64,000 bases of DNA from Candidatus Gottesmanbacteria bacterium. Its GTDB lineage: Bacteria > Patescibacteriota > Microgenomatia > UBA10105 > UBA927. A program made the position numbers and the translations under genes. Each line of letters begins with the position of its first letter. Positions within the stretch are counted from its first letter, which is position 1. Below, one piece after another: positions 1 to 22,039 of this stretch. The stretch lies in NCBI GenBank assembly GCA_023245355.1, contig JAHFKN010000004.1, forward strand, positions 25,309 to 89,308, written 5' to 3'. The notes beneath the pieces are model-generated. The model had not been told where the DNA came from, ran no database searches, and worked only from the letters and a program-made list of their open reading frames with translations.

Positions 1-326
1 AATACCCTGGCAATCTGAAAAAGCGTATCAGGAAACACTTCTACGTCCCCGTCTAAAAATACGACAAATTCACCCCGGGCCGCATCTACTCCCCTGTTTC
101 GTGCTATTGCCGGACCTTTGTTTGCCCGCAGCCGGACAATCCGTACCGGTTTCTTCAGTGCATCAGGAGGAAGCAGCCGGGCCTCTAAAGCCGGATCGGA
201 ACCGTCATCGACGACAATCACCTCGTACTCAGGCGCGTGCTTACTCTTGCTAAGAGTCAGAAGAAGATTCTCCAGTTTTTCCAACGCATTGAAATACGGA
301 ATAATGACGGACAAATATGGTTTCAT
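1..326 (-). CDS. Glycosyltransferase family 2, N-terminal part (gene continues beyond window start)
   Basis: Reverse-strand translation from ATG at 326 gives MKPYLSVIIPYFNALEKLENLL...EYEVIVVDDGSDP...FVVFLDGDVEVF, which are the GT2 signature motifs (VIIPxFN, DDGS, DxD). Its start lies 9 nt downstream of the DegT gene stop. Confidence 0.6.
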   Translation of the reverse strand, partial: MKPYLSVIIPYFNALEKLENLLLTLSKSKHAPEYEVIVVDDGSDPALEARLLPPDALKKPVRIVRLRANKGPAIARNRGVDAARGEFVVFLDGDVEVFPDTLFQIARV

Positions 327-334
327 CGGTACGG

Positions 335-1474
335 CTACAGGGCCTGCAGCGTTTTTCGGGCAGTTAGGACAACATATTCACGTTCTGTTTTGCTCATTCC
401 CGCGTAAATCGGCATACGCACCAGCGTTGCCGCGACATCTTCTGTTACCGGCAACCTCATCCTTGCTCCTGCCAGCCGCTTTCCCATGGGAGATGCATGA
501 AGCGGCATATAATGCGTAGATACTTCTATGTGTTTTGCCCGCATTGCTTTTACGAATGCTTCCCGCATGCTCACGTTCGCGAATTTGAGCGCGTAAATAT
601 GCCAATTCGGCTGTGTCATCCCCTTCGGTACTATAGGGAGTTGAATTTTTCCGGCAAATGACTGAAATGCTTTAGTATATTCTGATGCAATTTGATTTCT
701 ATCTTTATTTATTCTATCAATTTGATCCAATTGTATATTCACCAACGCAGCGAGTATATCAGAAAGCATAAAACTGCTTCCTTCCCCTACCCAGCTATAC
801 GCAGACACCTTTCCGGCAAGGAACGCCATTCTGTCGGTACCGATAGAGCGGAATATTTCCATGGCATCAGAAAGAGCACGGGAATTTGTCAGGATGCTTC
901 CTCCTTCGCCGGCCGCTACGTTTTTCGTCCCATGAAATGAAAGCGCGCCCGCCACGCCGAACGTCCCCAACGCTTTATGCTTATATTGTGCGCCGATACA
1001 ATGTGCCGCATCTTCAACGACCCAGATTCCTGCTTTTTTGGCCAAAGCCATCAGTTCGTCAAAATACCCTCCGGCAAACCCCGCATAATGCACAGTCATG
1101 ATACCGACCGTCCGTTTGGTTATCCGGCGCATGACGTCTTGTGGATCAAGACTAAAGTGTATGGGGTCAATATCAGCAAATACCGGGGTTGCGCCCCTGA
1201 CCATGGCCGCAGTAGCGGTAGACGCAAGCGTAAAAGAAGGAACAATCACTTCATCACCGGTTTTTGCTCCCAGGCAAGCGACGGCAGCCTCCATAGCGTG
1301 GGTGCAGCTTGTGACCGGAATTGCAAATTTTGCCTTCGTAATCTGCTTTAATTTTTCGCGCATCAACGCGGATTCCGGCCCGTCAGCAGTGCCCACGCCT
1401 GTACGCATGGCGTGGATAACCGCGGCTTCAGCTTTCACTCCCCAAAACGGTTTATGGAGCGGAATTTTCATCAA
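335..1474 (-). CDS. DegT/DnrJ/EryC1/StrS-family PLP-dependent sugar aminotransferase (ArnB/WecE-like)
   Basis: 379-aa ORF. The SFHGTKN motif carries the PLP lysine. Family-typical N-terminus (fold type I aminotransferase) and the general layout of nucleotide-sugar aminotransferases. Confidence 0.85.
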   Translation of the reverse strand: MMKIPLHKPFWGVKAEAAVIHAMRTGVGTADGPESALMREKLKQITKAKFAIPVTSCTHAMEAAVACLGAKTGDEVIVPSFTLASTATAAMVRGATPVFADIDPIHFSLDPQDVMRRITKRTVGIMTVHYAGFAGGYFDELMALAKKAGIWVVEDAAHCIGAQYKHKALGTFGVAGALSFHGTKNVAAGEGGSILTNSRALSDAMEIFRSIGTDRMAFLAGKVSAYSWVGEGSSFMLSDILAALVNIQLDQIDRINKDRNQIASEYTKAFQSFAGKIQLPIVPKGMTQPNWHIYALKFANVSMREAFVKAMRAKHIEVSTHYMPLHASPMGKRLAGARMRLPVTEDVAATLVRMPIYAGMSKTEREYVVLTARKTLQAL

Positions 1475-1540
1475 AACCGATCATACTTGAAGCCATACGG
1501 GTTTGACAAGACCTGCCGCTGGCGGATACAACTAAATTAC

Positions 1541-1996
1541 ATGGGTGAACTGGGAAAAAGGCTGAAACCGAGGGCCACACATCAGCAGGACTATGTCGTG
1601 TATAAACCGGTAGACATTCCCATAACCGTCAGCATGGACACACCAGGTAAAACAGTGCGGGAACTCATGAAATGGCCCAAAAACAAAAAGGTATTGGCAG
1701 TACGGGTACCGAATACGTTTTCAGAATATGAAACGCATTACCTGACAAACAACAAAACGGCAGCAAGCCACGGTCAGGAAGCCAGGAAAGCCACGATAGA
1801 AGCGCTCAGCGCAGAGCATCACAAATCAGCACGGGAAATATTGCGTGACCTGGCAGGAGGCGCGGTATTACCGCTTATCTATTCCACAAACCTGCCGTAT
1901 CTGACCACTCCGCGCGGTCCGCTTCATGAACCGGTATTTATAGATCAGAAACAGGCAAAACTGAAGAAAAAAAGGAAGGCTAAATCCGTTTTATGA
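1541..1996 (+). CDS. Hypothetical protein with a basic C-terminus; function unknown
   Basis: The ORF fills the ~500-nt gap between two minus-strand genes. The internal ATG at 1541 is preferred over 1412 because the longer form would overlap the divergent DegT start. No recognisable motif. Confidence 0.3.
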   Translation: MGELGKRLKPRATHQQDYVVYKPVDIPITVSMDTPGKTVRELMKWPKNKKVLAVRVPNTFSEYETHYLTNNKTAASHGQEARKATIEALSAEHHKSAREILRDLAGGAVLPLIYSTNLPYLTTPRGPLHEPVFIDQKQAKLKKKRKAKSVL

Positions 1997-2513
1997 CTCT
2001 TGCAGGCACGCCTGCCACCATGACGCTGTCTGTCACATGCTTCGTGACAACAGCACCGGCGCCGACTACGCTTCTTTTGCCGATTACAACTCCGGGCAAA
2101 ATGATCGCTCCGGTGCCGATATAGGACCCCCGCTTCAGTACGACCTTGTCTTCATGCGTGGGATATATATTCTGCAGCGGATGATCGTTGTAGCCTACAT
2201 TTATATGCGTAACGATGGTTACTCTGCCGGAAAGCGTTACTTCGTCGGCAAGCTCTATGCCGCCGCGAACGTCCAGACTGACTTCATCACCCAAAAAGCA
2301 TTTGTTACCGATCGTCAGCCTGCTGAACCCATAATGGTGCAAATTGGTAAACCGAATATCCATAATCACCGTATCTTTTCCTACCGTTGCTCCCGCCAGC
2401 CGGAGCAGGAACACCCGCACGGGAGGCAACGACACATGAATGAGCCAGGCATACAGGCCGTACCACACAAACTTTACTGCTTTGGAAAATCCGATCGTCC
2501 GTAATGCATTCAT
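1980..2513 (-). CDS. Hexapeptide-repeat (left-handed beta-helix) acetyltransferase, WbbJ/WcaF-like
   Basis: Repeated [LIV]G-x4 hexapeptides (GTGAIILPGVVIGKRSVVGAGAVV) and an N-terminal hydrophobic helix. Confidence 0.75.
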   Translation of the reverse strand: MNALRTIGFSKAVKFVWYGLYAWLIHVSLPPVRVFLLRLAGATVGKDTVIMDIRFTNLHHYGFSRLTIGNKCFLGDEVSLDVRGGIELADEVTLSGRVTIVTHINVGYNDHPLQNIYPTHEDKVVLKRGSYIGTGAIILPGVVIGKRSVVGAGAVVTKHVTDSVMVAGVPARVIKRI

Positions 2514-2522
2514 ACTGGATAC

Positions 2523-3239
2523 CTAATGCAGCCGTTTCCGTAACGCCCATAACTGCACCATATAGTCTAGCGTATCACGGACGATATTGACGGAGGAAAC
2601 TTTGTCAAAACGCCGGAGAAACAGAACGGGCACCTCCATAATAGTCAGGCCTGCGCGTCCGGCATACACCATAATTTCCGTGTCCCAAAACCACCCGGTA
2701 TGCCGTGTTTTCGAAAACACGGGAAGAATTTTTTTCCGGCGGAAAAACTTATACCCGGTTTCCGTATCCATGCCTCCCGTGCCGATCATTTTATCGGACA
2801 GCCACTGATACCCGCGGCTTAACACTTCGCGGATGATCGCTTTCGGACTGGTCCGGTAATATCTGCGTCCGATAACAACATCTGCCTGTCCTTTCAGGAT
2901 ATGCGAAACAATCGACGGGATATATACGGGAGATACCTCACAATCGATGTCTATGTATCCTGACACCGTTCCGGTCGAAGCACGTACCCCGTCCATGACT
3001 GTCTTGCCGCGACCCTGATTTTTCGTGTGATACAGCGCGCGCATATTAGGATAGGTACCGCAATACGTTTTGATGAGGTTTTGTGTACCGTCGGTACTTG
3101 CATCATCCACAAATATCAGCTCGTATGTCACGTGACTGCCGTCCAGGACATCTTTTATGCGCCTCACGCTGTCGGCAAATAACCCTGCCTCATTAAAACA
3201 CGGTAACACCAGGGAAAGATCCGGGGATTTTTGCTTCAT
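2523..3239 (-). CDS. GT2 polyprenyl-phosphate sugar synthase (DPM1/ArnC/GtrB-like)
   Basis: LSLVLPCFNE...LIFVDDASTDGT...DIDCE motifs typical of Dpm1/ArnC-type GT2 enzymes that load sugars onto polyprenyl phosphate. 238 aa. Confidence 0.8.
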   Translation of the reverse strand: MKQKSPDLSLVLPCFNEAGLFADSVRRIKDVLDGSHVTYELIFVDDASTDGTQNLIKTYCGTYPNMRALYHTKNQGRGKTVMDGVRASTGTVSGYIDIDCEVSPVYIPSIVSHILKGQADVVIGRRYYRTSPKAIIREVLSRGYQWLSDKMIGTGGMDTETGYKFFRRKKILPVFSKTRHTGWFWDTEIMVYAGRAGLTIMEVPVLFLRRFDKVSSVNIVRDTLDYMVQLWALRKRLH

Positions 3240-3288
3240 TGCCGCTTGATCATATCAGGCGCGGTTATTGTGATGCAATAAACGGCCG

Positions 3289-4818
3289 CTATTTGTTCCG
3301 TACGAGAAGACTGCTGTCACCGGAAAGCGGGGAAAAATGCGTGCGGATATATGTTTTATCACGCTCAGAAAGTGTTGCTACTCTCTCCAGCCTCCCCTGA
3401 TACACATACTGAGTACCGGTCGTTTCCAATGCTGAGGCCAGATCCGGCAGTTCGCGGGAAAGGTACGGTTCCCACTGTCCGAACGGCACACAGCAGACAT
3501 AATACGGATCTTTAAAATACAGCGTAGAGCCGACCAAATCCAATACATATGCGTTTTTAGGGATAGTACGCATGGCGCGCTCAAGAATCCCGATATCTTC
3601 ATGGTTCGTGAGAGTAAACTTGGGGGTAGTAACGGACACCGTAATGCTCCACATGCCGTAAATCAACACCAGCAGACCCGCGGCGCCTATTGCACCCCCG
3701 CCCCGCACTCTGCTGAGCATATTCCATGCGATGGAAAGGGCGTCCGCCGCATAAAAAGAAACAAATACGGCGACGGGAATAAGATACTGCGCATGCCGCA
3801 GTGGATATCCGTACATAAATACGGAAACCTGAGCCAGCAATGAACCTGCTATCAGCAATTCCGTAAACACTCCTTTTCTGCCTCCGGGCAAAAACGGAGT
3901 AACGAGCCGCAGACAGCCGGTCATAAGCCCGATAAACCATATGGCATGATTTGCCAACAAACCGGCTGACCACCCGGACTGACCGTAATATGTAGCGTTG
4001 GGATAAAAAAATAAATCCGGCAACATACCGAATACTTCTCCGATACGGTTCACTTCAAACGGAAGTTTCGTGAGCGAATATACAGCCGTCATGACAACGT
4101 CCCGGCTGCCCGATATTGCACCGATCCATAGTGCAAAAATACCGGCGGGGATCAGCATTCCCGCTGCTAATAACCCTAGTGCGCGCGCTTTATATACCCG
4201 TGTACCCTCTCCCCATACTACCCAAAGAACACTTACGAGTCCTGCAACCGCTATCTGAGGCACTGTCTTGGGCAATACCAAAAGCGAGGTACCGTACCAA
4301 AACCCTGCCATCATCCAGCGCGCGTACCCCTTAGTACCCCGCAGGGCTTCAATATGCCAATACAATCCCAATAATGCCAATACTGTGGCGAGCGTGTCCG
4401 GTCGTATTTCCAGTAGTTTGTCAGCCGGCAGGGGAAGAAAAGCAAGCATAATTGCTGCCCATATTGCCATCCCGGAGTGCCGCACCTGCCGGAAAATTAC
4501 AAAAAGGAGTCCCGTCATCGCCGCAAATATACAAAAAGCCAGAACGCGCCCCGCGATAAGGACGGAGGCTCCTTCGAAAAACACGTAGAGCGGCGCCAAT
4601 ACATACAAAAAACCCGGCGGGACATACTGCAAAAAATCCCTATACGGCAACAACCCGGAAAACACATTGTGCGCCCAATGGAGATATGCCATTTCATCGG
4701 CATCAAAATACCGCACCAGAGACAGCTTAAGTCTTACGCTCAACAGAAAAATCAGAAGCCCTGAAACAATAAGACCGGTCACGATGATAAACAACACTCG
4801 AATTTGCTTGAGTTGCAT
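3289..4818 (-). CDS. Polytopic GT-C-fold membrane glycosyltransferase (ArnT/PMT-like)
   Basis: Roughly 12 predicted TM helices with aromatic-rich loops. The track ORF extends to 4884, but the ATG at 4818 (MQLKQIRV) avoids a 40-nt overlap with the divergent gene at 4844. Confidence 0.55.
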   Translation of the reverse strand: MQLKQIRVLFIIVTGLIVSGLLIFLLSVRLKLSLVRYFDADEMAYLHWAHNVFSGLLPYRDFLQYVPPGFLYVLAPLYVFFEGASVLIAGRVLAFCIFAAMTGLLFVIFRQVRHSGMAIWAAIMLAFLPLPADKLLEIRPDTLATVLALLGLYWHIEALRGTKGYARWMMAGFWYGTSLLVLPKTVPQIAVAGLVSVLWVVWGEGTRVYKARALGLLAAGMLIPAGIFALWIGAISGSRDVVMTAVYSLTKLPFEVNRIGEVFGMLPDLFFYPNATYYGQSGWSAGLLANHAIWFIGLMTGCLRLVTPFLPGGRKGVFTELLIAGSLLAQVSVFMYGYPLRHAQYLIPVAVFVSFYAADALSIAWNMLSRVRGGGAIGAAGLLVLIYGMWSITVSVTTPKFTLTNHEDIGILERAMRTIPKNAYVLDLVGSTLYFKDPYYVCCVPFGQWEPYLSRELPDLASALETTGTQYVYQGRLERVATLSERDKTYIRTHFSPLSGDSSLLVRNK

Positions 4819-4843
4819 GGGATAATGACACCATTGTGACACA

Positions 4844-6451
4844 ATGAAAAAAATATCTCGAGAATCGGTTGCGGCAATCATCATCGGAATCGGTGTTATT
4901 ACGGCAAACTCCTATCATGTATTAGCAGAATTGATCACAAACCCCAAAGACCGCGTATTTACCGGCATAGCACACTATTTCGCCGATTATTTTCTGTATG
5001 TTTCCCACATTACGCAGGGGGCACACGGTGCCTGGTTTATGACGAAACATCTCTTTACCAATGAATCCATGTCTCCGACGTGGATTTACTGGATCTATAC
5101 GATTCTCGGCAAGACAAATGCGATCGGCATACACCCGTTTGCCGCATACAACGGAAGCATCATCCTCTTAGGTACTGCACTTCTTATCCTCTGGTGGAAT
5201 ATAATCCGGGATTTGTTCCCGAAACGGCCGCTTACGCAGCTGATAGCATTTCTCTTCATTACCACGGCATCAAATTTCCCCGGATTAGGAGACTTTTGGT
5301 TCTCCCCTACTCCTGCGCTAAACCGCCTCGGCGGCGTTCCGCACCAATTTGTTCAGACTATTCTATTACTTCTTACCATACGTGCATTTTTATCTGCGGC
5401 ACACACCGCAAAACGGCCGTCCGTACTATCAGGCATCACCCGCTATCTGCTGCTTTGTGCGGTTTCTTTTCTTGCCGCCACAGCAAGTCCGATTCAGATG
5501 CTGCTTGTCACGGCCTCAATGGGTATATTCCTCGTAATCTCACTGTGGGGCGGCAACAGATCCTATATAGCATCCTTTGCGGCAGTCGCACTTCCTGCAT
5601 TTTTCGGAGCATATCTTACGAACGCTGAATTTGCCCGGCAGCCGATTCTTGCCGCCGCAAAACTATGGGAAAACAGCCAGCCCGTTTCCGTACCTGTCTG
5701 GCAATTTATCCTCGCGCTCGGACCGATCAGTGTGCTTCTTCCGTTCGGAATACGACAGTATCTTACAAACATCACACCCTTGCGGTCTGTGCTGGGAATC
5801 TTTGCTGCATTGTCACTGGCAGCTTTTTTCAGCGGGGTTCCGCTTCTGTTAGGAACAACTCCCGTCCGCTGGCTCTCTCCTGCCTCAATCGCCGTACTCC
5901 CTCTTATTGCCGCACTGGGATTTATGGAAGTGTCCCGTCTCACGGATCGCATGATTCCGCTTCCCCGTGTGTACATTCGCGCTCTGTTGCTCCTGATATA
6001 TATCGCGTTTACTGTTCCGTCGCTCTATACACAGGTGCAGGCAAGAGTAACACCGCTCCGGTCTGATCCGACCATGCAAACGCTCAATCATGTTCCCGCG
6101 CCCGTAATGGAAGCGCTTACCGCTATAAAATCTACTCCGGGAAACGGTGTCGTCGTCACTGATCCTTCCATCCCCTACGACGTACTTGTCCCCGTCATTT
6201 CAGGAAAACGGTCATTTACCGGACACCCTATCCATACGCTCTACCCCCAGGTAAAAGAAGAACTGCGCCACAAGTTTTTTTCCGGGCTAATGACGGACCC
6301 CGAAGCCAGACAATTTATAAAAGACCACACTATTTTGTATATCCTCGCTTCCCCACAGGCAGTTCGTATACTCGAACGGTATCCGTTTCTTTCCCTTTCG
6401 TTTCAAAACGACACCGTCTCAGTGTATATCGCAACCGGGATAACGCCGTAA
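4844..6451 (+). CDS. Polytopic membrane protein, paralog family A (GT-C-like); motifs HYFADYFLYVSHITQG, FPKRP and RLGGVPHQ
   Basis: 535 aa with many TM helices. Clearly homologous to 14500..16083 (HHPADYFYYLSQFAQG, MPKRP, RFGGVPHQ) and more distantly to 11471..13120. Confidence 0.6.
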   Translation: MKKISRESVAAIIIGIGVITANSYHVLAELITNPKDRVFTGIAHYFADYFLYVSHITQGAHGAWFMTKHLFTNESMSPTWIYWIYTILGKTNAIGIHPFAAYNGSIILLGTALLILWWNIIRDLFPKRPLTQLIAFLFITTASNFPGLGDFWFSPTPALNRLGGVPHQFVQTILLLLTIRAFLSAAHTAKRPSVLSGITRYLLLCAVSFLAATASPIQMLLVTASMGIFLVISLWGGNRSYIASFAAVALPAFFGAYLTNAEFARQPILAAAKLWENSQPVSVPVWQFILALGPISVLLPFGIRQYLTNITPLRSVLGIFAALSLAAFFSGVPLLLGTTPVRWLSPASIAVLPLIAALGFMEVSRLTDRMIPLPRVYIRALLLLIYIAFTVPSLYTQVQARVTPLRSDPTMQTLNHVPAPVMEALTAIKSTPGNGVVVTDPSIPYDVLVPVISGKRSFTGHPIHTLYPQVKEELRHKFFSGLMTDPEARQFIKDHTILYILASPQAVRILERYPFLSLSFQNDTVSVYIATGITP

Positions 6452-6458
6452 AACACGT

Positions 6459-13120: not shown

Positions 13121-13137
13121 TCTAACCTAAACCCGGG

Positions 13138-13167
13138 TTGACTTTACACCCACCTACTTGGGATAAT
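13138..13167 (+). promoter_or_regulatory. Sigma70-like promoter candidate: TTGACT, 18-nt spacer, GATAAT
   Basis: Seen in the 54-nt divergent intergenic region. The -10 element ends 7 nt before the ATG at 13175. Confidence 0.3.
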
Positions 13168-13174
13168 CGTACCA

Positions 13175-13729: not shown

Positions 13730-13791
13730 TCCGGATATCTTCATAACCGTTTCAGTGGAATATCAGAGAACAATTCTCTATACTCACTCCT

Positions 13792-14454: not shown

Positions 14455-14499
14455 CAGAGCGATGCTTCCTCTTGGTATCTCCTCCCTGCTTCCATTACC

Positions 14500-16083
14500 A
14501 TGGTAGATGTGTACACGGTTATTACCATCGGCATCATTCTGACTGCCACACTTGAAAATATCTGGCCGCTTATCGCCGGATACTCCCAAACGCCCCGGGG
14601 GTTTGTTTTTTTAGGCACTGTCCATCACCCTGCTGATTATTTCTACTATCTTTCCCAGTTTGCTCAGGGGTCATACCGCTTCATAACATCGGTCAATCTG
14701 TTTTCGGGAGAACAGGCGGCTCCGACGTTTGTCGGCTGGAGTAACGTATTGGCAGGCAGGATATTTTATATGGTCGGCTTCTCCCCGTTTATGGCTTACC
14801 ACGTAAGTGTCTTTGTGTTTACCGTACTCCTTTTTATTGCCGGTTATCTCCTGCTTTCCGCCATGATGCCCAAACGTCCGGCAACACTTGCTCTGTTCCT
14901 GTTTGCCCTGTTCCACGCATTTCCGGTTTTAAGGGACGGCCAGCGTTCCTACGGCGACTATTGGAACAATTTTGCCGTTCCCAGAGTCCGGTTCGGAGGC
15001 GTGCCGCATCAGCTCCTGCTTACGACAGCCTCATTCCTCATGGTCTACTTTTTCATTATCTGGATACAACGCAAAAACCACGCATGGCACGTACTCGCGG
15101 GCCTCGGCGTGTCCAGCCTCATTCTGGCAAGTCTGCAACCTGTTTTGTGGGTGCTTGTCACGGGTATCGCCGGACTTTCTGTATGTACCCATATGTTGAT
15201 AACCACAAAACGGATTACTTCCATACTGCGCGTTACCACACCGGTGCGCCTGTGGCTTACGGTATTTATCAGCGGACTGCCGCCTCTTTTTTACCTGAAC
15301 CGGCTGTTTTCTGCACTTCCGTTCTCCCAACTCAGGCTGTGGGAGGCTCATGCGCAAACCGCACTCACTCCAGAACATGTGATCACGGCGACCGGGCCCA
15401 TATTGTTAATCGCGCTCTTTTCGCTGCCTCATTTCATAACCCGCCCGTCATTTGCATCGCTTTTTACGGGTATATTTTCCGTTGTTTCTTTCTTTCTCTT
15501 TCTCTCCCCCATTCCGCAACTGATCGGTATAAGTCACGTCCGCTTCATGTCTGCGCTGACCATTCTGTGTATTTCCGGCATCGCAGCACATGGAATAACT
15601 TCTCTATGGCAATCCCGCACGCGCATAGCGCGCATCAGCGGAATACTCATTTTTGCAGGCACAATCGCCCTCCTGATTCCGAATCATTTTAAGACGCTGG
15701 AGCTGTCGACCCGATTTGATCCCAATAACGCCTATTACTACCTCACCAACACTGACTATGAATTTTTGAAGGCGGCAGGCTCAATAGGAAACCCGGAGGA
15801 CACGTTTCTCGTCGCCTGGCCGTACAACAGCATGTTCCCTGCAATCGCGGGCAGGAGGACGTTTCATGGTCACCCGCTTCTTACGATCAATTCGGCACAA
15901 AAAGACGCGCTTGCATCCCGGGCGCTAGGCGGCTCCATGACACCTTCCGAACTCCGGCAATTCCTCAAAGACAGCCATATCTCATACGTGCTTACGGTCG
16001 CGGATACCCGTGCGTTTTCAACCGTACCGTTTCTCACCCGTGTAGCAGCCTCAAAAAATCTGGTAGTATACCGTGTCCTCTGA
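14500..16083 (+). CDS. Polytopic membrane protein, paralog family A (GT-C-like)
   Basis: 527 aa. HHPADYFYYLSQFAQG, MPKRP and RFGGVPHQ motifs shared with 4844..6451. Confidence 0.6.
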   Translation: MVDVYTVITIGIILTATLENIWPLIAGYSQTPRGFVFLGTVHHPADYFYYLSQFAQGSYRFITSVNLFSGEQAAPTFVGWSNVLAGRIFYMVGFSPFMAYHVSVFVFTVLLFIAGYLLLSAMMPKRPATLALFLFALFHAFPVLRDGQRSYGDYWNNFAVPRVRFGGVPHQLLLTTASFLMVYFFIIWIQRKNHAWHVLAGLGVSSLILASLQPVLWVLVTGIAGLSVCTHMLITTKRITSILRVTTPVRLWLTVFISGLPPLFYLNRLFSALPFSQLRLWEAHAQTALTPEHVITATGPILLIALFSLPHFITRPSFASLFTGIFSVVSFFLFLSPIPQLIGISHVRFMSALTILCISGIAAHGITSLWQSRTRIARISGILIFAGTIALLIPNHFKTLELSTRFDPNNAYYYLTNTDYEFLKAAGSIGNPEDTFLVAWPYNSMFPAIAGRRTFHGHPLLTINSAQKDALASRALGGSMTPSELRQFLKDSHISYVLTVADTRAFSTVPFLTRVAASKNLVVYRVL

Positions 16084-16118: not shown

Positions 16119-16931
16119 ATGGTACACTTTCGTATTGAAATGACTACTGCCGAGTTCCGACCGGTTGCTGAAATTTTAAATCCCCACGCTCCTAACTTCA
16201 GTGAGCTTCACTACCACGTCAGAATCGATGCGATGACACCTGAGGAAAAACTACACTGGCTCTCTGACCAAATCCTTAAAGAAGAACACCGCCTGCTCCG
16301 GGAACCGTACAACATGGCGCAAATCCGGCCGGAAGCCAAAATCATGTTCTTAACGGGAGGCCCCAAAAGCGACGTTACCGAAGCACGTGATTTTGACGGC
16401 AACCTCATTCATACGCGCCATCTCGATCATCCGCGGCCGATGTTTGCCGAAATTCCGGAAGCACTAAGCTCCATATCCCACTGGTTCGACATGATGATCC
16501 AAAGCAAGGAAAACAACACGCTGCCTCCGTCTCCTGTCGCTGCTCTTTCAGAAGTATCTGACGTCGTATACAACGTGTCACATCTATTAACACTCGATGA
16601 GTATTTCTGGGAAGAATACAACACGTACCTCCAGCGTATTGCAGGCTCGTTAGGGTACAGTCTGGATCAGCTTCTGACCATTGCCGTCTACAAATACAAT
16701 TTCCGGCTTGGCCAGGGAAAATCACAAAAAAATATCGGTATCGAAAATGATCTTATCTCAAAAGTACTGGCCAAGGTCGGCCCTGACGGCAAACCGCTGT
16801 ATCCGACACCCACCGAAACACAATTCCAGAAAACGTTCCATACACTGGCAGAAGTTCAGACGCTTCTTAATACACGCCTGGAGCAACTCCGCCAGGAACA
16901 TGAGTGGAAGAAACACCCCGTATCCGGCTGA
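16119..16931 (+). CDS. Soluble hypothetical protein embedded in the glycosyltransferase locus
   Basis: 270 aa with no TM segment and no recognisable motif. Tightly packed between membrane-protein genes. Confidence 0.5.
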   Translation: MVHFRIEMTTAEFRPVAEILNPHAPNFSELHYHVRIDAMTPEEKLHWLSDQILKEEHRLLREPYNMAQIRPEAKIMFLTGGPKSDVTEARDFDGNLIHTRHLDHPRPMFAEIPEALSSISHWFDMMIQSKENNTLPPSPVAALSEVSDVVYNVSHLLTLDEYFWEEYNTYLQRIAGSLGYSLDQLLTIAVYKYNFRLGQGKSQKNIGIENDLISKVLAKVGPDGKPLYPTPTETQFQKTFHTLAEVQTLLNTRLEQLRQEHEWKKHPVSG

Positions 16932-17000: not shown

Positions 17001-18857
17001 GTGTCAAAAAACTCCGCATTATTCGTATTGATAGCACTCGGGCTGTTCGTGCGGCTTATCCTGATCCCCAACCCCGGATTTGAAGCGGATATTTCATTCT
17101 GGAAATCGTGGGGGCTCGCGTTTGTCGACAAGGGAGCCGTCGAGGGACTCAGGGTGACCAACAATAACTACCCCACTCCGTTTATCTATACGTTAGGAAC
17201 CATGGTGGGGATCTACAAACTGTTTGCCGATCCGCATAATTTTCAGGAATTCTGGAAAAATACCAATCTCCTTTTTCTGACCATCAGTAAACTGCTGCCC
17301 ATTCTCGCGGATTTAGGGATTGCAGCGCTTTTGATCTATATAGGAAAAAACGCCAAAAAACTCGGATTTCCTTCTTTGGGATTTTCACTCTTCGGCCTGT
17401 CGTTTTATGAACTTGCGGCGGGTATCTATCTTTTAAATCCCGTGTCACTTATCGACGGCGCCTGGTGGGGCCAGGTCGACAGTGCCGGCGTATGTATTTT
17501 CTTAGGTGCACTCGTTCTTGCGCTCAAAAAACAACCGTTTGTTGCCGGATTCGTATTTATCCTCGCCATGATGACCAAGCTCCAGAATATGATTTATGGC
17601 CCTCTGTTTTTTCTTTTCCTGTGGCAAACGGGCGGATTCACCGGATTGATGAAAGCCATATTAGGAGCACTGACAGGCTTCGTAGGGCTTAATATAGAAT
17701 TCTTTGCTGCCAAAAACGCCGACCGGGTTCTATCCAGCCTTACCGAAAACTATGATTATTTCCCCTGGATGAGTCTTATGGCGTACAATCTCTGGTGGAT
17801 TGTGACGGGCGCCAAAGGACTTGTCACCTCGGATAAGCTTACGGTTTTAGGGATTCTGAACGCCAAAACCATCGGATTACTGTTATTTTCCTCATTCTAT
17901 TTATTTGCACTGCTCCGCCAGCTTATGATTTCGGTGCGCCGCGAAAGTACAAAAGACGACGGTACGAAACCGGTGATTCAGTCATTCCTCGAAGGTCTTA
18001 TTCTCGTAAACGGAGCGTTTTTTCTTTTTCAAACCCAGTCGCATGACCGGTATGCGTTTCCGCTGTCCGTATTCCTTCTGTTGTGGGCGCCGTTTATCAT
18101 CACTGACGGAAAGAATAAACTGTCAATTGCGCGGTTAAAGATATTTGCGGGATTTTATACCGTATTCAGCCTGTTCTATTTCTATAATCTTCATACGGCT
18201 CTTGCGGTAAATTATCCGCATAACGGCCTGCCGTTTCTATCGGGACTCACCCAGCCGGCATTCACAATATTTACGGCATATATCCTTCTTGCCCTTTTTG
18301 CCGTCTATATTTTTTCACTGCTTCAATTCTCAAAACACACCCGGCGGATCGGACTGGCAGTGCTCGCTATTTTTATTTCCGGAGTGCTGTATCTTAATAA
18401 ACCCCTTTGGCTCCGTCAGCCGGTACGTTTAACCGCATTTACGCCGTACATAAGCGAACAGGCATACGGAACCAGGCAAACGGACAAGGCGGTACAGAGC
18501 TCATTCGGAGGTGCGTACAAATGGACCAGACTGTCCGTACAATATCTCTTCTATGACAACGGCCTGGGAACGCACGCCAATTCCAAACATGTGTTTGATA
18601 TCAATAAAAAATTTAAGAAATTTACCACCGACTACGGCATTGATACCGAAGCAGGCGCCAAAGCGAGCGCGCGGTTTGAAATCTACGGAGATGACCGCCT
18701 GCTGTTCCGCTCGGAATCCATGGGCCGGTACGTGCTTCCTAAACACGCGGAAGTAGATATAACGGGTGTTACCTATCTTTCACTGGTCACAACAGACGCC
18801 GGTGACGGTAATTATGACGACCATACGGATTGGTTGAGTCCTGTACTCTGGCCATAA
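17001..18857 (+). CDS. GT-C-like membrane glycosyltransferase fused to a C-terminal NPCBM-like carbohydrate-binding domain
   Basis: 618 aa. N-terminal multi-TM region with an EADISFWKSWG loop. The C-terminal ~140 aa (nt ~18438..18857) reads GLGTHANSKHVFDI...FEIYGDD...VDITGVTYLSLVTTDAGDGNYDDHTDW, matching the NPCBM/NEW2 consensus (GLGvHA.S...VGvDD...V.v.GA..L.LVV.DaGDG...DHADW). Confidence 0.65.
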   Translation: MSKNSALFVLIALGLFVRLILIPNPGFEADISFWKSWGLAFVDKGAVEGLRVTNNNYPTPFIYTLGTMVGIYKLFADPHNFQEFWKNTNLLFLTISKLLPILADLGIAALLIYIGKNAKKLGFPSLGFSLFGLSFYELAAGIYLLNPVSLIDGAWWGQVDSAGVCIFLGALVLALKKQPFVAGFVFILAMMTKLQNMIYGPLFFLFLWQTGGFTGLMKAILGALTGFVGLNIEFFAAKNADRVLSSLTENYDYFPWMSLMAYNLWWIVTGAKGLVTSDKLTVLGILNAKTIGLLLFSSFYLFALLRQLMISVRRESTKDDGTKPVIQSFLEGLILVNGAFFLFQTQSHDRYAFPLSVFLLLWAPFIITDGKNKLSIARLKIFAGFYTVFSLFYFYNLHTALAVNYPHNGLPFLSGLTQPAFTIFTAYILLALFAVYIFSLLQFSKHTRRIGLAVLAIFISGVLYLNKPLWLRQPVRLTAFTPYISEQAYGTRQTDKAVQSSFGGAYKWTRLSVQYLFYDNGLGTHANSKHVFDINKKFKKFTTDYGIDTEAGAKASARFEIYGDDRLLFRSESMGRYVLPKHAEVDITGVTYLSLVTTDAGDGNYDDHTDWLSPVLWP

Positions 18858-18858
18858 T

Positions 18859-21207
18859 ATGAAACGCATAGAACCATATATCGGGATAGTGTTGCTTCTT
18901 GTTGCTGTCGGATTTAATCTGTGGACGTACCGCAGTGAACCGTCTTCACTGGTGGATCCGAATGACAATACGTTCCAATTTGCTTTGGTCGACAGGACAA
19001 ACCAAATATGGTCTTTTGCACAACAAAAGTGTACCGGCATTTTAAAGCCATTCTGCAGCATTTCCTACGTATCTGACCACTGGGTTCCGAACTGGGCCGA
19101 GGGATATAACCTCCCGTACTACTATTCGCACATTCCGCAGATCCTGATAGTCGCCTCATGGCGGCTTTTGACCCCGATGATTCCTCAGTATTCGCTGTTT
19201 ACCCATTATCATTGGGTTATTTATCTGCTTCTGTGCCTCTTCCCTATTTCGCTGTTTATCGCACTCCGGATTGTCGGCATTACCTGGATTTCGGCCGGCA
19301 TAGGCGCTCTCCTTGCCTCGCAGATATCGACAGACGGCCTCTACGGACTGGATCCTGCATCATTCGTCTGGCGGGGATACGGGTTAAGCAGTCAGCTATT
19401 TTCCACTATTTGGCTTCCGCTTGCGATTGCCTATGCCTGGCGGTATTTCACCAATCGCACATCTTCCCGTTTTCTTTGGCCGGCAATAGCAAGCTTGGCT
19501 GCAACGACAGCCGGTCATCTGGGCATGGGCATTATCGGATTTATGAGTGTGGGAGTCTTAGCTATCAGCCCGTCCGTACAATCTATACTGACACAATCCT
19601 GGGACAAAAAAACCGCAAAGGATCTCATGGATACCTTACTCAAGCTATGTTTTGTCTTCGGCGGTGTCGGACTGTTACTGGGATACTGGATCGTACCGAT
19701 ACTGCGCGACGGAAACTACCACAACATCTCCGTCTGGGACGGGATATGGAAATTTGATTCGTTCGGGTACCGCGAGGTGCTCAAAAATCTGTTTAACGGC
19801 GATCTGTTTGATTTCGGCCGCCTTCCTGTCATGACTATTGCCGTGTGTATCGGTCTGTTTGCGGCATTTTCAGGTACATATTTCGGATTTTCCCTTTTGT
19901 TTATCTTCTGGCTGCTTCTGTATTTCGGCAGAACGACCTGGGGAGGAGTATTCAGTCTCATTCCGGGAATGAGCGAATACCATCTTTCGCGTTTCATAGT
20001 CGGTGTCCATATAACGGGGATATTTTTAATCCCGTTAGGCATAGAAAAAATACGGGAAATACTCCGGCAATACGCGCCGAAATATATACCGACCGTCACG
20101 GGTCCGCTCATAGACCTCATATGTACGACCATCATTATTGCCCTCGGCATTTCGTTGATATATCCCCAGACCATCCGGTATGCCGAACACAATGACGTGT
20201 TGATCGCGCGGGGTATTAATTCATACCGTCAGGAGGTAAAAGACGTTGACGCCTTATTTACAGCTCTCAGATCAAAAATGGCTCAAAAACCCGGCCGGGT
20301 ATTTGCCGGTCGCGGAGGCGGATGGGGCAAAGGCTTCCGGATTGCGGAAACACCGATGTATATGCATCTTTCTACCTACGGCATTCCGGTTATTTTATGG
20401 CTTCCGGAAACATGGTCCCCTAATTCGGATACCGAACAGTATTTTTCGGAAAACAATCCCGACCACTACAACCTCTACAACGTGCGGTATGTGGTGACCC
20501 CGGCAACACTTAATTCCGAACAAATACAGCCGTTCTGGAGCCTTGTAGAGAACGGAGACACATGGAAATTGTATGAAGTGGCAACAGACGGATATATCAC
20601 ATCCGGAGTCCGCCCGGCAACCGTAAGCAGCACGAAAGCGGATTATAGGAATGTCGTGCGCTTCTGGATGCATTCCGGAGCGCCTGATCAGGGGTTATTC
20701 CCCGAACTGACGTTTGATGCCGCATACCCCAAACAAACCGGACGCGCAAACTTCCGGATGAGAAATGAGGTGACGTACGAAACCCCCGACAAAGCACTGC
20801 ATAATCTGTTTGCAGAAGCCCCGCTCTATCTCCCGCCGGCTGCTTCCTCACTGCAGCAGTTTACCGGCATGAAAAAAGAAGACTATGTAAAAAGTGTAGT
20901 TACGTCACAATCGGAAAACGGTGACATGGTCTTTACTGCGCGCGTGACGGTAAAAGAAAACTGCAAAGAGTGCATTGTGATCCTCAAGCAATCATTCCAC
21001 CCCTCCTGGCAGGCGACGGTAGACGGGAAACCCACACAGACATTTGCCGTATTTCCCTTTTATACCGCCGTCAGCCTGGATACGCCGGGAGATCATGATG
21101 TCGTATTTTCATATACGCCGTCGGCGTTCAAACACATATTTCTTGCTGTCGGATTGATTTCCCTTTTGTGCTTTCTTTGGGTTGCCCGTAAAAACCGGAC
21201 ACCCTGA
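18859..21207 (+). CDS. Large polytopic membrane protein with a ~380-aa extracytoplasmic C-terminal domain and a terminal TM helix (GT-C-like?)
   Basis: 782 aa. Many N-terminal TM helices and a final hydrophobic segment (IFLAVGLISLLCFLWV). Starts 1 nt after the upstream gene stop. Confidence 0.5.
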   Translation: MKRIEPYIGIVLLLVAVGFNLWTYRSEPSSLVDPNDNTFQFALVDRTNQIWSFAQQKCTGILKPFCSISYVSDHWVPNWAEGYNLPYYYSHIPQILIVASWRLLTPMIPQYSLFTHYHWVIYLLLCLFPISLFIALRIVGITWISAGIGALLASQISTDGLYGLDPASFVWRGYGLSSQLFSTIWLPLAIAYAWRYFTNRTSSRFLWPAIASLAATTAGHLGMGIIGFMSVGVLAISPSVQSILTQSWDKKTAKDLMDTLLKLCFVFGGVGLLLGYWIVPILRDGNYHNISVWDGIWKFDSFGYREVLKNLFNGDLFDFGRLPVMTIAVCIGLFAAFSGTYFGFSLLFIFWLLLYFGRTTWGGVFSLIPGMSEYHLSRFIVGVHITGIFLIPLGIEKIREILRQYAPKYIPTVTGPLIDLICTTIIIALGISLIYPQTIRYAEHNDVLIARGINSYRQEVKDVDALFTALRSKMAQKPGRVFAGRGGGWGKGFRIAETPMYMHLSTYGIPVILWLPETWSPNSDTEQYFSENNPDHYNLYNVRYVVTPATLNSEQIQPFWSLVENGDTWKLYEVATDGYITSGVRPATVSSTKADYRNVVRFWMHSGAPDQGLFPELTFDAAYPKQTGRANFRMRNEVTYETPDKALHNLFAEAPLYLPPAASSLQQFTGMKKEDYVKSVVTSQSENGDMVFTARVTVKENCKECIVILKQSFHPSWQATVDGKPTQTFAVFPFYTAVSLDTPGDHDVVFSYTPSAFKHIFLAVGLISLLCFLWVARKNRTP

Positions 21208-21232
21208 ACGTAACGCAGAGAATGCCATCGGT

Positions 21233-22039
21233 ATGCCGTACAACACGCGCTATTTCTTATTATTCCTGGGTCTTGCCGTCGTAACACTGATAAGCGTCAA
21301 TTTGCACTTCCCCACTCCGGCCGGAAAAGCAGATATCCTGATTATCTCTCCCCACCCTGATGATGCGGTCCTTTGCTGTACCGGACTTATTCTGCAGGCA
21401 TTGGGACAGAAAAAGCGCGTGCATATCGTAGAAATGACCGACGGGGACGGATATGCAGATGCGGCAGCTCTCCTAGCCAAGAAATCCGCCGGATTACTGA
21501 CATTGATAGACATGCGCAGGCTGGGACGGGTACGGAAACATGAAGAAATCCTAGCTATGCAAACCCTTGGACTCAACCGCAATCACATCACGTTTTTGGG
21601 ATACCCTGACGGCTGGCTGGATGAGGTGTACAACGCAGAAGATACACCGTTCCGCAGTCCCTTTACTGAATTGTCCCGGTCTGCTTCCTCTGACACACTA
21701 TATATCAAATCATCAGTTATAGCCGACCTTACATCAATTATTGCCCGGTACGCACCAACACACGTGTATGTGTCCGGCAATTTTGACAGTGCCTTAGATC
21801 ACCGGGTAACCTATAAATTCGTGACGGATGCCGTGAAAATCTCGGGGTATACCGGCAAACTGTTTATGTATGCAAATCACACAACGGACAGCGGCACGCT
21901 ATTGCCGGAATATGAGCTGACTCTTACACGGGAACAAAAACAGGCAAAAGCTGCTGCTATCACAGCATATACGTCACAATTACCGTTGGACGGTGATTAT
22001 CTGCGTTCGTTTGCCGGAACGAAAGAACTATTTTATTAG
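21233..22039 (+). CDS. PIG-L/LmbE-family N-acetylglucosaminyl deacetylase
   Basis: ISPHPDDAVLCCTG motif (the PIG-L HPDDE signature) followed by HIVEMTDGDG. An N-terminal TM anchor. The ATG at 21233 is preferred over the track start at 21182, which overlaps the upstream gene. Confidence 0.8.
   Translation: MPYNTRYFLLFLGLAVVTLISVNLHFPTPAGKADILIISPHPDDAVLCCTGLILQALGQKKRVHIVEMTDGDGYADAAALLAKKSAGLLTLIDMRRLGRVRKHEEILAMQTLGLNRNHITFLGYPDGWLDEVYNAEDTPFRSPFTELSRSASSDTLYIKSSVIADLTSIIARYAPTHVYVSGNFDSALDHRVTYKFVTDAVKISGYTGKLFMYANHTTDSGTLLPEYELTLTREQKQAKAAAITAYTSQLPLDGDYLRSFAGTKELFY

Follow-up and report, generated by a model that had tools for sequence, protein, structure and literature searches.

Nine GT-C-type membrane glycosyltransferases encoded with donor-sugar tailoring enzymes in a conserved block of a Gottesmanbacteria genome

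Nine polytopic membrane proteins encoded close together in 64,000 nucleotides of a Candidatus Gottesmanbacteria genome (the window) are GT-C-type glycosyltransferases with donor-sugar tailoring enzymes alongside, and this assignment, already proposed by a first-pass annotation of the DNA, holds up by Pfam matches, homologues, structure models and a conserved aspartate. The block is quite probably an extracytoplasmic envelope-glycan locus of Gottesmanbacteria-type CPR bacteria, in which the nine GT-Cs work step by step, from polyprenyl-phosphate sugars, to build or decorate a surface glycoconjugate or a small number of them. No description of this locus was found in the searchable literature.

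Between 3289 and 21207 the polytopic proteins, with 8–10 hydropathy peaks apiece, account for nine of twelve genes and cover 15,590 of 17,919 bases (87%; Table 1, where genes are named by their first coordinate). The first-pass annotation had nine such genes contiguous here and eleven in the 64 kb. Nine are indeed present, but as six consecutive genes (3289–13120), then one, then two, with the cupin 13175, the anchored protein 13792 and the soluble protein 16119 interposed; the total comes to ten with the DUF2298 protein at 58498, and 62671–64000 holds no additional polytopic GT-C-like protein. The first gene, earlier given as 3289–4884, is likelier to be 3289–4818 on database gene calls and homologues, and so its overlap with 4844 disappears. 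The ATGA overlaps at 8081–8084 and 11471–11474 and the 1-nt gap at 18857/18859 (TAA-t-ATG, 18855–18861) are seen directly in the DNA letters, as first described. The cluster genes fall into at least four transcription units of differing orientation, and the locus continues ~10 kb upstream.

Table 1. Genes of the cluster and related genes elsewhere in the window
Gene	Coordinates	Strand	Product	Matches and features
1	1–326	-	GT2, first 108 codons of 341 aa, 3 C-terminal TM helices	remainder upstream of window
335	335–1474	-	DegT/WecE-like PLP sugar aminotransferase	PF01041 1.9e-85
1541	1541–1996	+	small conserved ORF, 151 aa per database calls	gene call L002 6698–7153
1980	1980–2513	-	hexapeptide-repeat acyltransferase (WcaF/WbbJ/NeuD-like)	PF00132 2.8e-10
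2523	2523–3239	-	soluble GT2, 238 aa, nearest polyprenyl-phosphate sugar synthases (Dpm1/ArnC/PgfS/AglJ/PpgS type)	PF00535 4.9e-26
3289	3289–4818	-	GT-C, divergent PMT_2-like, 509 aa	invariant R-Y-F-D39-A-D41-E42 behind TM1
4844	4844–6451	+	Pfam-less GT-C family, paralogue 1 of 3	invariant D48 in HYFADYF; AglB-like C-terminal domain
6459	6459–8084	+	putative PMT_2-family GT-C, 541 aa	PF13231 2e-13, 51.3 bits (cutoff 26.1); invariant TWD36 behind TM1
8081	8081–9490	+	putative PMT_2-family GT-C, 469 aa	PF13231 27.3 bits (cutoff 26.1), marginal; conserved D36; start codon overlaps preceding stop
9414	9414–11474	-	putative YfhO-like GT-C, 686 aa	PF09586 30.7 bits (cutoff 28.5), C-terminal 78 aa only, marginal; conserved G-D31-D32 behind TM1
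11471	11471–13120	-	Pfam-less GT-C family, paralogue 2, 549 aa	conserved D51; stop overlaps start of 9414–11474 gene
13175	13175–13729	+	RmlC-like cupin (dTDP-keto-sugar epimerase/isomerase superfamily)	PF00908 47.1 bits (cutoff 27)
13792	13792–14454	+	220-aa protein: N-terminal membrane anchor, short P/T-rich linker, outside domain	one TM
14500	14500–16083	+	Pfam-less GT-C family, paralogue 3, 527 aa	conserved D46
16119	16119–16931	+	270-aa soluble protein	most conserved gene of the locus by far, 74–94% identity in 8 genomes
17001	17001–18857	+	GT87/PIG-M/ALG6-type GT-C (aa 1–470) with C-terminal NPCBM (CBM51-like) glycan-binding module	NPCBM 3.2e-31; conserved D30
18859	18859–21207	+	putative YfhO-family GT-C, 782 aa	invariant D33-P-N-D36-N behind TM1
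21182	21182–22039	+	PIG-L family de-N-acetylase, N-terminal signal-anchor	PF02585 2e-24, 87 bits; TM aa 25–45
58498	58498–60708	-	DUF2298/Chlor_Arch_YYY polytopic protein, 13 TM, candidate tenth GT-C-like	PF10060 1.4e-95; TIGR03662 482 bits
61387	61387–62670	+	amine-oxidase-superfamily flavoprotein	PF01593 (Amino_oxidase) 5.4e-29; NAD_binding_8; NF005560 PRK07233 398 bits (cutoff 252)

All nine keep an aspartate right behind the first transmembrane helix, 30–51 residues from the N-terminus and after a short basic N-terminal stretch. Pfam gathering thresholds are passed by three of them, 6459 and 8081 (PMT_2) and 9414 (YfhO), and for these and 18859 a GT-C class is probable from the Pfam matches. 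Orthologues of 9414 carry a precomputed YfhO label and the protein itself has weak C-terminal matches to PgfM1/PgfM2; its C-terminus is resembled by that of 18859, for which PF09586 is found in 37 of 120 listed homologues, NCBI naming one a YfhO family protein. The 3289 protein taken alone has no Pfam match, and members of its family match PMT_2 (7 of 64), DUF2142 (2) and GT87 (1). Its AF2 model has a pLDDT of 93.9, and the best 41 Foldseek matches of that model in the PDB are all GT-C proteins, with ArnT and yeast STT3 at a TM-score of 0.61. Together with that of 4844, whose family is without any Pfam or NCBIfam model, the AlphaFold models have pLDDT values of 94–95 and significant matches exclusively to GT-C folds. 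The 4844 model also represents the paralogues 11471 (blastp 7.6e-20, hhalign probability 99.8%) and 14500 (3.6e-41, 100%). Relatives of 17001 (n=35) match GT87 (12), PIG-U (6), Alg6_Alg8 (6), ALG3 (6) and PMT_2 (2), and its family profile finds GPI mannosyltransferase 1 (PIG-M, 3.5e-9) and ALG6 (1.6e-4) among solved structures; its matches to CBM51-type structures range from 1e-31 to 1e-52. Profile-profile links among the GT-C families are weak, and the nine make up at least five separate lineages, namely PMT_2 (two), distant PMT_2-like, YfhO (two), GT87/PIG-M/ALG6-like with CBM51, and the Pfam-less STT3/AglB-like family (three).

The DegT, hexapeptide, cupin, PIG-L and Dpm1/ArnC-like GT2 genes named in the first pass are all borne out by family matches. 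DegT scores 353 bits against the WecE model NF008687 (dTDP-4-amino-4,6-dideoxygalactose transaminase, cutoff 375), higher than the 202 bits against ArnB. The hexapeptide enzyme matches the NCBIfam WcaF subfamily at 8.5e-23, under cutoff, and the 238-aa GT2 has among its top NCBIfam matches PgfS (2.8e-15), AglJ (2.2e-13), ArnC (6e-11) and PpgS (3.8e-10), all under equivalog cutoffs, with Dol-P-hexose transferase also among the nearest families. A second GT2 had been counted, and what lies in the window is the start of a protein mostly upstream of it, the translation of 1–326 being the N-terminus of L002:4458–5483(-), with a precomputed PF00535 and EpsD, MftF and HfsG as top NCBIfam matches, all far under cutoffs. 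This 341-aa membrane GT2, a methyltransferase and a second GT2 of the 2523 type (239 aa) lie just upstream of the window. The cupin was rejected as a bona fide RmlC (TIGR01221 38 bits, cutoff 156), and the flavoprotein 61387, earlier called Glf-like, has no GLF match. Since the donor-enzyme scores all lie under NCBIfam equivalog cutoffs, the identity of the sugar is approximate only; with DegT nearest WecE and the 238-aa GT2 nearest polyprenyl-phosphate sugar synthases, it may be aminated or acetylated. The window holds no flippase gene of GtrA, ArnE/F or Wzx type, and only L031 and L032, both distant loci, have ArnE/F-like genes. Nine or ten GT-Cs would also have to draw on no more than two or three candidate synthases of lipid-linked sugars, which counts against the glycan-assembly reading.

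Synteny had been proposed as a check, and the locus recurs in ~20 Gottesmanbacteria/Patescibacteria genomes with one-to-one orthologues, the GT-C genes at ~35–77% identity, so that the block is not a matter of chance. A point against that reading is that the cluster varies in size (about five or six genes in the core block of L043 encode polytopic or GT-C-like proteins), so that some steps would be non-essential; in L042 the donor cassette is replaced by FdtA, DegT and GNAT, which fits the expectation for a variable surface glycan. Three other genes of the cluster are without a Pfam match: 1541, on the strand opposite its neighbours, with orthologues at 52–84% identity in L005–L007; 13792, also without an NCBIfam match and kept in the cluster (54–66%); and 16119, which finds nothing in Pfam, NCBIfam or the PDB and has a non-significant Cro-HTH-like stretch at aa 188–218. 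Among relatives PIG-L is found only where it adjoins a giant gene of more than 10,000 codons, here encoding a membrane-anchored protein of 10,844 aa. L042 and L043 have the cluster without the giant gene, abutting LysM-M23/Rho/DUF2298 genes that in the window come after it, with DUF2298 in the same place, beside Rho and followed by genes for a flavoenzyme and a PMT_2 protein. The neighbourhood is thus conserved and the giant gene a variable insertion into it, not an obligatory partner.

Precedent for the mechanism comes from systems joining a GT-A polyprenyl-phosphate sugar synthase, a flippase and a GT-C (PMC8035078). By family similarity, DegT, the RmlC-like cupin and the hexapeptide acyltransferase would convert a dTDP-4-keto-6-deoxyhexose in the cytoplasm to a 4-amino- or 4-acetamido-4,6-dideoxyhexose, and the Dpm1/ArnC/PgfS-like GT2s (2523 and the one just upstream of the window) would place this and other sugars on polyprenyl phosphate. 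A flippase encoded outside the window would then turn the lipid-linked sugars over, and the nine GT-Cs, with an N-in first helix leading to the conserved Asp of the first external loop, would move them at the outer face of the membrane. Their donor is presumably a polyprenyl-phosphate sugar, the fold and the Asp being what this analysis saw directly. The anchored PIG-L may remove N-acetyl groups from the product, and candidate acceptors are a wall polymer, a lipoglycan or Ser/Thr/Pro-rich protein stalks. With at least five lineages and an own orthologue for each gene in relatives, nine different linkage or acceptor specificities are most likely, and the nine may work as one assembly line on a single glycan, as opposed to several decorating systems. 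An aminated or acetylated polyprenyl-phosphate glycan assembly line was the original suggestion; GT-Cs with donor tailoring stand, and the single line, the acceptor and the flipping are what we infer.

The assembly logic would most likely be that of mycobacterial arabinogalactan and lipoarabinomannan rather than the one behind a lone three-component decoration system. Systems of the latter kind (GtrB/CsbB/ArnC GT-A with GtrA/ArnEF and YfhO/PMT_2/GtrC/ArnT) are alike in having a polyprenyl-phosphate-synthase-like GT2 beside PMT_2/YfhO GT-Cs, a conserved Asp on the first external loop and outer-face transfer from a lipid-phosphate sugar (PMC8035078), but they pair one-to-one, include a flippase and belong to Firmicutes or proteobacteria, whereas here the host is a CPR bacterium and the main GT2 has no membrane segment. 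Mycobacterial arabinogalactan, lipoarabinomannan and lipomannan synthesis (EmbA/B/C, AftA-D, PimE, MptA-C) likewise uses many GT-Cs stepwise outside on polyprenyl-phosphate monosaccharides, with carbohydrate-binding modules fused to some enzymes in both cases and PimE/GT87 being the Pfam family matched by 17001 relatives. However, genes for a DPA or DPR pathway (UbiA-type transferase, DprE1/2) were not seen in the locus, its sugars are apparently amino-6-deoxyhexoses, its enzymes are non-orthologous (9–14% structure-based identity), and phylum and envelope are unrelated. The Arn pathway (ArnB, ArnA, ArnC, ArnD, ArnE/F, ArnT) has analogous parts in DegT, N-acylation, the ArnC-like GT2 and the PMT_2/ArnT-like GT-Cs, ArnT being a top structural match of 3289 and PIG-L a candidate counterpart of the deacylase. 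It differs in its aminotransferase, DegT being closer to WecE, in using a formyltransferase in place of a hexapeptide acyltransferase and an ArnD-type polysaccharide deacetylase in place of PIG-L, and in having ArnE/F; to our knowledge no lipid A is expected in the monoderm-like lineage of the host. Oligosaccharyltransferases (STT3/AglB/PglB) are set apart by the WWDYG-type motif, absent from 4844, 11471 and 14500; the Pfam-less family has no Pfam STT3 match even at E<=10, the 4844 family profile has no sequence match to any solved OST, and AftA and ALG12 score nearly as well as oligosaccharyltransferases. Streptococcal Pgf/GtrB-PgtC2, which O-glycosylates Ser/Thr-rich disordered regions (PMC12041528), resembles the locus in PgfS, the best NCBIfam match of 2523, in YfhO-type GT-Cs and in membrane-anchored P/T-stalk proteins encoded nearby; here, though, the matches all fall far under equivalog cutoffs and the GT-Cs are far more numerous.

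A transporter or other non-glycosyltransferase role for the polytopic proteins, with incidental clustering beside sugar enzymes, is already contradicted and deserves almost no credence. Five of the nine as single sequences match no Pfam or NCBIfam model, and the family profiles of 4844, 3289, 6459 and 18859 match nothing in the PDB by sequence, as such a reading would allow; against this, no search, including the test set beforehand, matched a transporter family for any of the nine, homologues of the remaining proteins bear GT-C Pfam families, the Asp is universal, and the closest transporter matches of the two models have TM-scores of ~0.1–0.2 with non-significant E-values. Protein O-glycosylation, with Ser/Thr/Pro-rich stalks such as the giant and the 220-aa anchored protein as main clients, is unlikely, even though the giant's anchor runs directly into PTKTPTKTPT... 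with more P/T-rich linkers at aa 100–140 and 380–450, 13792 has its own P/T linker, the giant gene convergently adjoins the cluster in six of eight genomes examined, and the C-terminal domain of the Pfam-less family resembles that of oligosaccharyltransferases. The cluster persists in L042 and L043 without the giant gene, the giant proteins share mosaic segments only, nine enzymes are many for O-glycan stubs, and the NPCBM on 17001 favours a carbohydrate over a peptide acceptor.

Equally doubtful is that the nine are independent multi-component transmembrane systems, each decorating an envelope polymer of its own (peptidoglycan-linked polysaccharide, teichoic-like polymer, lipoglycan) with one sugar, as Bacillus, Listeria and Lactococcus do with several GT-A/GT-C pairs. 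Firmicutes decoration systems do use exactly PMT_2 and YfhO (PMC8035078), the genes lie in several transcription units, and 8081, 16119 and 14500 are absent from some relatives, as fits dispensable decorations. In known systems, however, each GT-C has its own GT-A, unlike the nine or ten served here by two or three GT2s; block and gene order are stable across the genomes, and nine separate acceptor polymers would seem unlikely for a CPR genome of ~1 Mb. Stepwise building or decoration of one or a few glycoconjugates remains the preferred reading, and with it a CPR bacterium with a tiny genome would devote a conserved block to nine different membrane-embedded GT-C sugar transferases and the enzymes that make an amino sugar and load it on lipid.

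The nine polytopic proteins encoded between 3289 and 21207 are GT-C glycosyltransferases by fold or family, and their probable function is the stepwise assembly and decoration of a glycan outside the cytoplasm by a non-redundant GT-C battery working from polyprenyl-phosphate monosaccharides. What the analysis shows is the fold or family of the enzymes, a conserved aspartate, gene linkage and synteny. Each protein has 8–10 transmembrane (TM) peaks by hydropathy, within the 8–13 helices expected of GT-C enzymes, helix patterns in the two AlphaFold2 models made (for genes 4844 and 3289, named like the rest by start coordinate) agree, and the nine genes cover 87% of the 17.9 kb. The first-pass annotation had the nine as contiguous; they are rather nine of twelve genes, with the cupin gene and those at 13792 and 16119 interrupting the run, and for the first of them database gene calls and homologues favour the 509-aa extent listed below over the one then proposed. 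Its total of eleven polytopic proteins in 64 kb comes down to ten, as an eleventh was looked for and not found. Both of the ATGA overlaps that it described, and its 1-nt gap, are seen directly in the sequence, and the DegT, hexapeptide transferase, GT2, RmlC-like cupin and PIG-L genes are there as claimed. Of its two GT2 genes that at 2523 stands, whereas the other is a 341-aa GT2 of which only the first 108 codons lie in the window and the rest upstream.

Features of the locus and its surroundings, with acidic residues conserved after TM1 in the nine membrane-protein families
Feature	Position	Strand	Description	Conserved acidic residues
Upstream of window, same organism			341-aa membrane GT2; methyltransferase; second 239-aa GT2	
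Upstream of window, same organism			544-aa polytopic protein; weak PMT_2 match; F-D-D-D motif after TM1	
Upstream of window, same organism			GT4-like enzyme; second DegT	
Upstream of window, same contig	L039 17578-21137		Leucine-rich-repeat protein; DUF7282 protein; GFO/IDH/MocA dehydrogenase; Wzy_C membrane protein	
GT2	2523-3239	-	238 aa	
3289	3289-4818	-	Membrane protein, 509 aa	D39/D41/E42
4844	4844-6451	+	Membrane protein	D48
6459	6459-8084	+	Membrane protein	D36
8081	8081-9490	+	Membrane protein	D36
9414	9414-11474	-	Membrane protein	D31-D32
11471	11471-13120	-	Membrane protein	D51
Cupin	13175-13729	+	RmlC-like	
13792	13792-14454		220-aa anchored protein	
14500	14500-16083	+	Membrane protein	D46
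16119	16119-16931	+	270-aa soluble protein	
17001	17001-18857	+	Membrane protein	D30
18859	18859-21207	+	Membrane protein	D33/D36
PIG-L	21182-22039	+	PIG-L deacetylase	
Giant ORF	22105-54639	-	10,844 codons, directly after PIG-L on opposite strand	
tRNA-Ala pair	55024-55175	-	Anticodons GGC, CGC; directly upstream of giant gene start	
DUF2298	58498-60708	-	Tenth polytopic protein; 13 hydropathy peaks	
Flavoenzyme	61387-62670	+	Amine-oxidase-superfamily flavoprotein	

All nine families keep an aspartate just after TM1, 30–51 residues from the N-terminus and behind a short basic N-terminus, which is where GT-C enzymes have their catalytic acidic residue, as established from the ArnT, PglB and PMT structures. 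The tabulated residues are at least 90% conserved in each family alignment, those of 8081 and 14500 comprising 5–6 sequences only, and the basic N-termini suggest that the first helix is inserted N-in. As single sequences, three of the nine are recognised by Pfam above threshold (6459, 8081 and 9414); five drew no Pfam match even at E<=10 and NCBIfam contributes nothing. Against the PMT_2 threshold of 26.1 bits (PF13231, GT39/GT83-like) 6459 scores 51.3 bits and 8081 a marginal 27.3, and 9414 matches YfhO (PF09586) at 30.7 bits (threshold 28.5), but in its last 78 residues only. The C-terminus of 18859 is similar to that of 9414, and although 18859 has no YfhO match itself, PF09586 is found in 37 of 120 homologues, at ~47–61% identity, among the matches listed. 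As a single sequence 17001 matches Pfam in its C-terminal NPCBM module alone, a part whose profile matches CBM51-type modules, but 35 relatives carry GT87 (12, best 3.5e-19), PIG-U, Alg6_Alg8 and ALG3 (6 each) and PMT_2 (2), and the family profile finds GPI mannosyltransferase 1 (3.5e-9) and ALG6 (1.6e-4) among solved structures. The 3289 protein falls below the PMT_2 threshold, with PMT_2 in 7, DUF2142 in 2 and GT87 in 1 of 64 relatives, and has an invariant R-Y-F-D-A-D-E motif after TM1. No search assigned any of the nine to a transporter family, the outcome named beforehand as refuting a GT-C character, and a transporter reading is excluded.

PDB sequence-profile searches with the 4844, 3289, 6459 and 18859 families gave nothing relevant, and the GT-C link of 4844 and 3289 comes instead from structure comparison, in which solved GT-C enzymes match both models. 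For 3289 (pLDDT 93.9) the top 41 Foldseek matches are GT-C enzymes without exception, ArnT and yeast STT3 reaching a TM-score of 0.61. The 4844 protein, for which none of 120 homologues has a Pfam domain, was modelled from a 67-sequence alignment at pLDDT 95.3, and all 14 Foldseek matches with E<=0.001 are GT-C (STT3, AglB, AftA, ArnT; TM-score 0.47–0.58), as against ~0.1 for transporters. Genes 4844, 11471 and 14500 form a set of paralogues (blastp 1e-20 to 1e-41; hhalign 99–100%). Strong hhalign links among the nine families are confined to these three, the 6459–14500 and 6459–9414 links being weak (77–78%), and so a single recent tandem amplification as the origin of the nine is rejected.

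The GT2 at 2523 has its nearest matches among polyprenyl-phosphate sugar synthases (PgfS, AglJ, ArnC, PpgS, Dol-P-hexose transferase), and so has the 239-aa GT2 encoded upstream, which is AglJ/ArnC/PgfS-like; both lie far under equivalog cutoffs and neither has a TM segment. Together with the fold, these PgfS/ArnC/AglJ-like neighbours suggest that the nine use a polyprenyl-phosphate-linked sugar as donor. Such sugars would include a 4-amino- or acetamido-4,6-dideoxyhexose among others: the DegT protein is closest to the dTDP-4-amino-4,6-dideoxygalactose transaminase WecE (353 bits, cutoff 375), with ArnB at 202 bits only. The hexapeptide enzyme resembles WcaF/WbbJ and NeuD/PglD types alike, so it may serve N- or O-acylation. 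The cupin belongs to the RmlC Pfam superfamily (47.1 bits, cutoff 27) but reaches 38.4 bits against the RmlC equivalog TIGR01221 (cutoff 155.75), and is therefore called RmlC-like, its reaction uncertain. The flavoenzyme further on had been described as Glf-like, an identity that is ruled out: GLF (PF03275) is not among its 18 Pfam matches at E<=10, the matches including Amino_oxidase (5.4e-29) and NAD_binding_8, with PRK07233 the best in NCBIfam. This PRK07233 flavoprotein and the DUF2298 (Chlor_Arch_YYY) protein are kept as neighbours in the window (58498–62670) and in the related loci L042 (16792–21634) and L043 (15800–20834), where a PMT_2 gene comes next, and may form a separate small module for lipid-linked sugars. 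The last ~1.3 kb of the window (62671–64000) contains no ORF longer than 130 aa and gave no Rfam match, and tblastn found no trace there of that PMT_2 gene.

Counting the upstream genes, the locus spans at least 32 kb and has ten GT-C candidates in a row, with DUF2298 further on. Of the upstream genes at L039 17578–21137, on the window's own contig, the sugar dehydrogenase is nearest to UDP-GlcNAc 3-dehydrogenase and the Wzy_C protein is O-antigen ligase/polymerase-like, and these genes suggest an added step of en-bloc ligation or polymerisation. No small 3–4 TM ORF or Wzx-like gene for a flippase (GtrA-type, ArnE/F-type or Wzx) occurs in 1–22039, where intergenic gaps are 7–70 nt; another part of the genome may encode one. 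Only in distant Patescibacteria, inside their divergent GT-C clusters, are there 124-aa four-helix membrane proteins (L031 6088–6462, L032 2664–3038), by eye ArnE/ArnF (SMR-like), which are candidate lipid-sugar flippases with no equivalent in the window.

The synteny comparison proposed as a check took one genome for each species and found 31 related loci; the gene order recurs in ~20 of them, with one-to-one GT-C orthologues at ~35–77% identity. The order is DegT, hexapeptide, GT2, 3289, 4844, 6459, (8081), 9414, 11471, cupin, 13792, 14500, 16119, 17001. Distant loci are smaller versions, the core block of L043 holding five to six polytopic genes. In L042 (4696–7374) FdtA (3,4-ketoisomerase), a GT2, a DegT apparently split into two ORFs and a GNAT acetyltransferase replace the cupin, DegT and hexapeptide transferase, and so a different amino sugar, of the 3-acetamido-3,6-dideoxyhexose type, would be put onto the same GT-C scaffold. 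The soluble 16119 protein, missing from the smaller clusters of L041–L043, is 74–94% identical over eight genomes, as against 41–64% for the GT-Cs beside it, and has invariant His-rich motifs SELHYHVRIDAMT and LIHTRHLDHPRPMF; neither the single sequence nor the profile gave a Pfam, NCBIfam or PDB match, a Cro-like HTH stretch at aa 188–218 being non-significant. In L037 (12309–12852) and L041 (7478–7946) toxin-antitoxin pairs (BrnT/CopG-type antitoxin; HicA/HicB) are inserted into the glycan locus or at its edge, that of L037 in the exact place of the window's PIG-L.

The window sequence is identical to that of the ENA metagenome contigs ERZ27279977 k141_6951596 (118 kb; window at 47571–111570) and ERZ27279942 k141_736955. 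For three of the membrane proteins Patescibacteria are almost the sole source of homologues, the named records being Candidatus Gottesmanbacteria and Woesebacteria, which makes the organism a CPR bacterium of the Gottesmanbacteria type. Composition gives no indication of foreign origin, GC being even at 0.46–0.52 throughout the window. Several MAG records with this Patescibacteria-type locus (L004, L006, L008, L009 and others) are titled 'uncultured Gammaproteobacteria bacterium', which their contents contradict, and the titles look like a placeholder or mislabelling.

Beyond PIG-L lies the giant gene, whose product has an N-terminal membrane anchor (aa 61–85), PTKTPT-type stalks (aa 100–140 and 380–450), a Cys-rich region (aa 140–780) and two more hydrophobic stretches near aa 3936–3985 and 7635–7720; over its full length no Pfam domain and no internal repeats were found. 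Five other genomes have giant genes of 6,880–13,555 codons in the same position. These match the window's in mosaic segments only (for example, aa 9629–10223 aligns with a stretch of the L038 giant at 54% identity), and orthology was rejected. Where the window has 21182–54639, L042 (12245–13431) and L043 (12377–12909) have no giant and the same flanks abut, with a YfhO gene and one or two small genes followed by LysM-M23, Rho, DUF2298 and the flavoenzyme, as after the window's giant. The giant gene is thus not an obligatory partner of the cluster. Its surroundings are conserved and it is itself the variable part, an island set between the GT-C cluster on one side and the tRNA-Ala pair and LysM-M23 gene on the other, and the tRNA pair is a possible landmark of the insertion site. 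PIG-L stands beside all four giants above 10,000 codons (window, L035, L036, L038) and in none of the four loci L037 and L041–L043.

The giant protein is a candidate client of the glycosylation enzymes, and protein O-glycosylation has a precedent in streptococci (PMC12041528); that O-glycosylation of Pro/Thr stalks is what the locus does seems unlikely all the same. A bolder proposal, of low probability, would make the 4844 family an unrecognised bacterial STT3/AglB branch that has lost WWDYG, and the locus a protein-glycosylation factory, taking in the PMT_2, YfhO and PIG-M-like enzymes as well, which coats the Pro/Thr-rich stalks of surface proteins, among them the hypervariable giant of 7,000–13,500 aa that most genomes have beside the locus. 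The family does have the architecture, with a GT-C TM core and, at the C-terminus, a globular domain like the central core of AglB. A regex search found WWDYG (WWDxG) in the C-terminal domain of none of the three paralogues, F-T/S-G-H-P-x-H-T being the C-terminal motif conserved instead, STT3 (PF02516) gave no Pfam match at E<=10 and the profile retrieved no OST from the PDB. The family is, from its model, built and predicted to work like an STT3/AglB-type GT-C, and lies outside that family by sequence criteria.

That the nine are independent decoration systems is likewise an improbable account. Firmicutes have multi-component transmembrane glycosylation systems with parts like those of the locus (PMC8035078), but such systems have one GT-C per GT-A and a dedicated flippase, whereas here nine GT-Cs and the upstream weak PMT_2-like protein share three GT2 genes, and 1–22039 has no flippase gene. 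In scale and logic the locus is rather like mycobacterial arabinogalactan/LAM assembly. In the extracytoplasmic assembly that we prefer, polyprenyl-phosphate monosaccharides would be used by the GT-C enzymes to add sugars stepwise outside the membrane, and the nine would cooperate on one product.

The fold of the enzymes and the kind of mechanism are already known. The novelty lies in the scale, with nine to ten GT-Cs per two or three lipid-sugar synthases, in the host lineage, and in a threefold-duplicated GT-C family with an AglB-like C-terminal domain and no database model; searches of the literature on CPR, Patescibacteria, Gottesmanbacteria or Microgenomates glycosylation and GT-C loci turned up neither this locus nor any GT-C battery from a CPR bacterium. 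CPR/Patescibacteria are ultra-small and mostly episymbiotic, with genomes of ~1 Mb, and to our knowledge there is almost no experimental knowledge of their envelope. The locus supplies a GT-C family of oligosaccharyltransferase-like architecture outside Pfam and NCBIfam, and GT2 and GT-C gene sets open to heterologous testing. A single conserved block, at least 32 kb long, with nine to ten different glycosyltransferases of the outer face implies a complex surface glycan made largely outside the cell, retention in ~20 related genomes implies that this glycan is central enough to be kept, and variation of the tailoring cassette between relatives is what would be expected of a structure facing hosts and phages.
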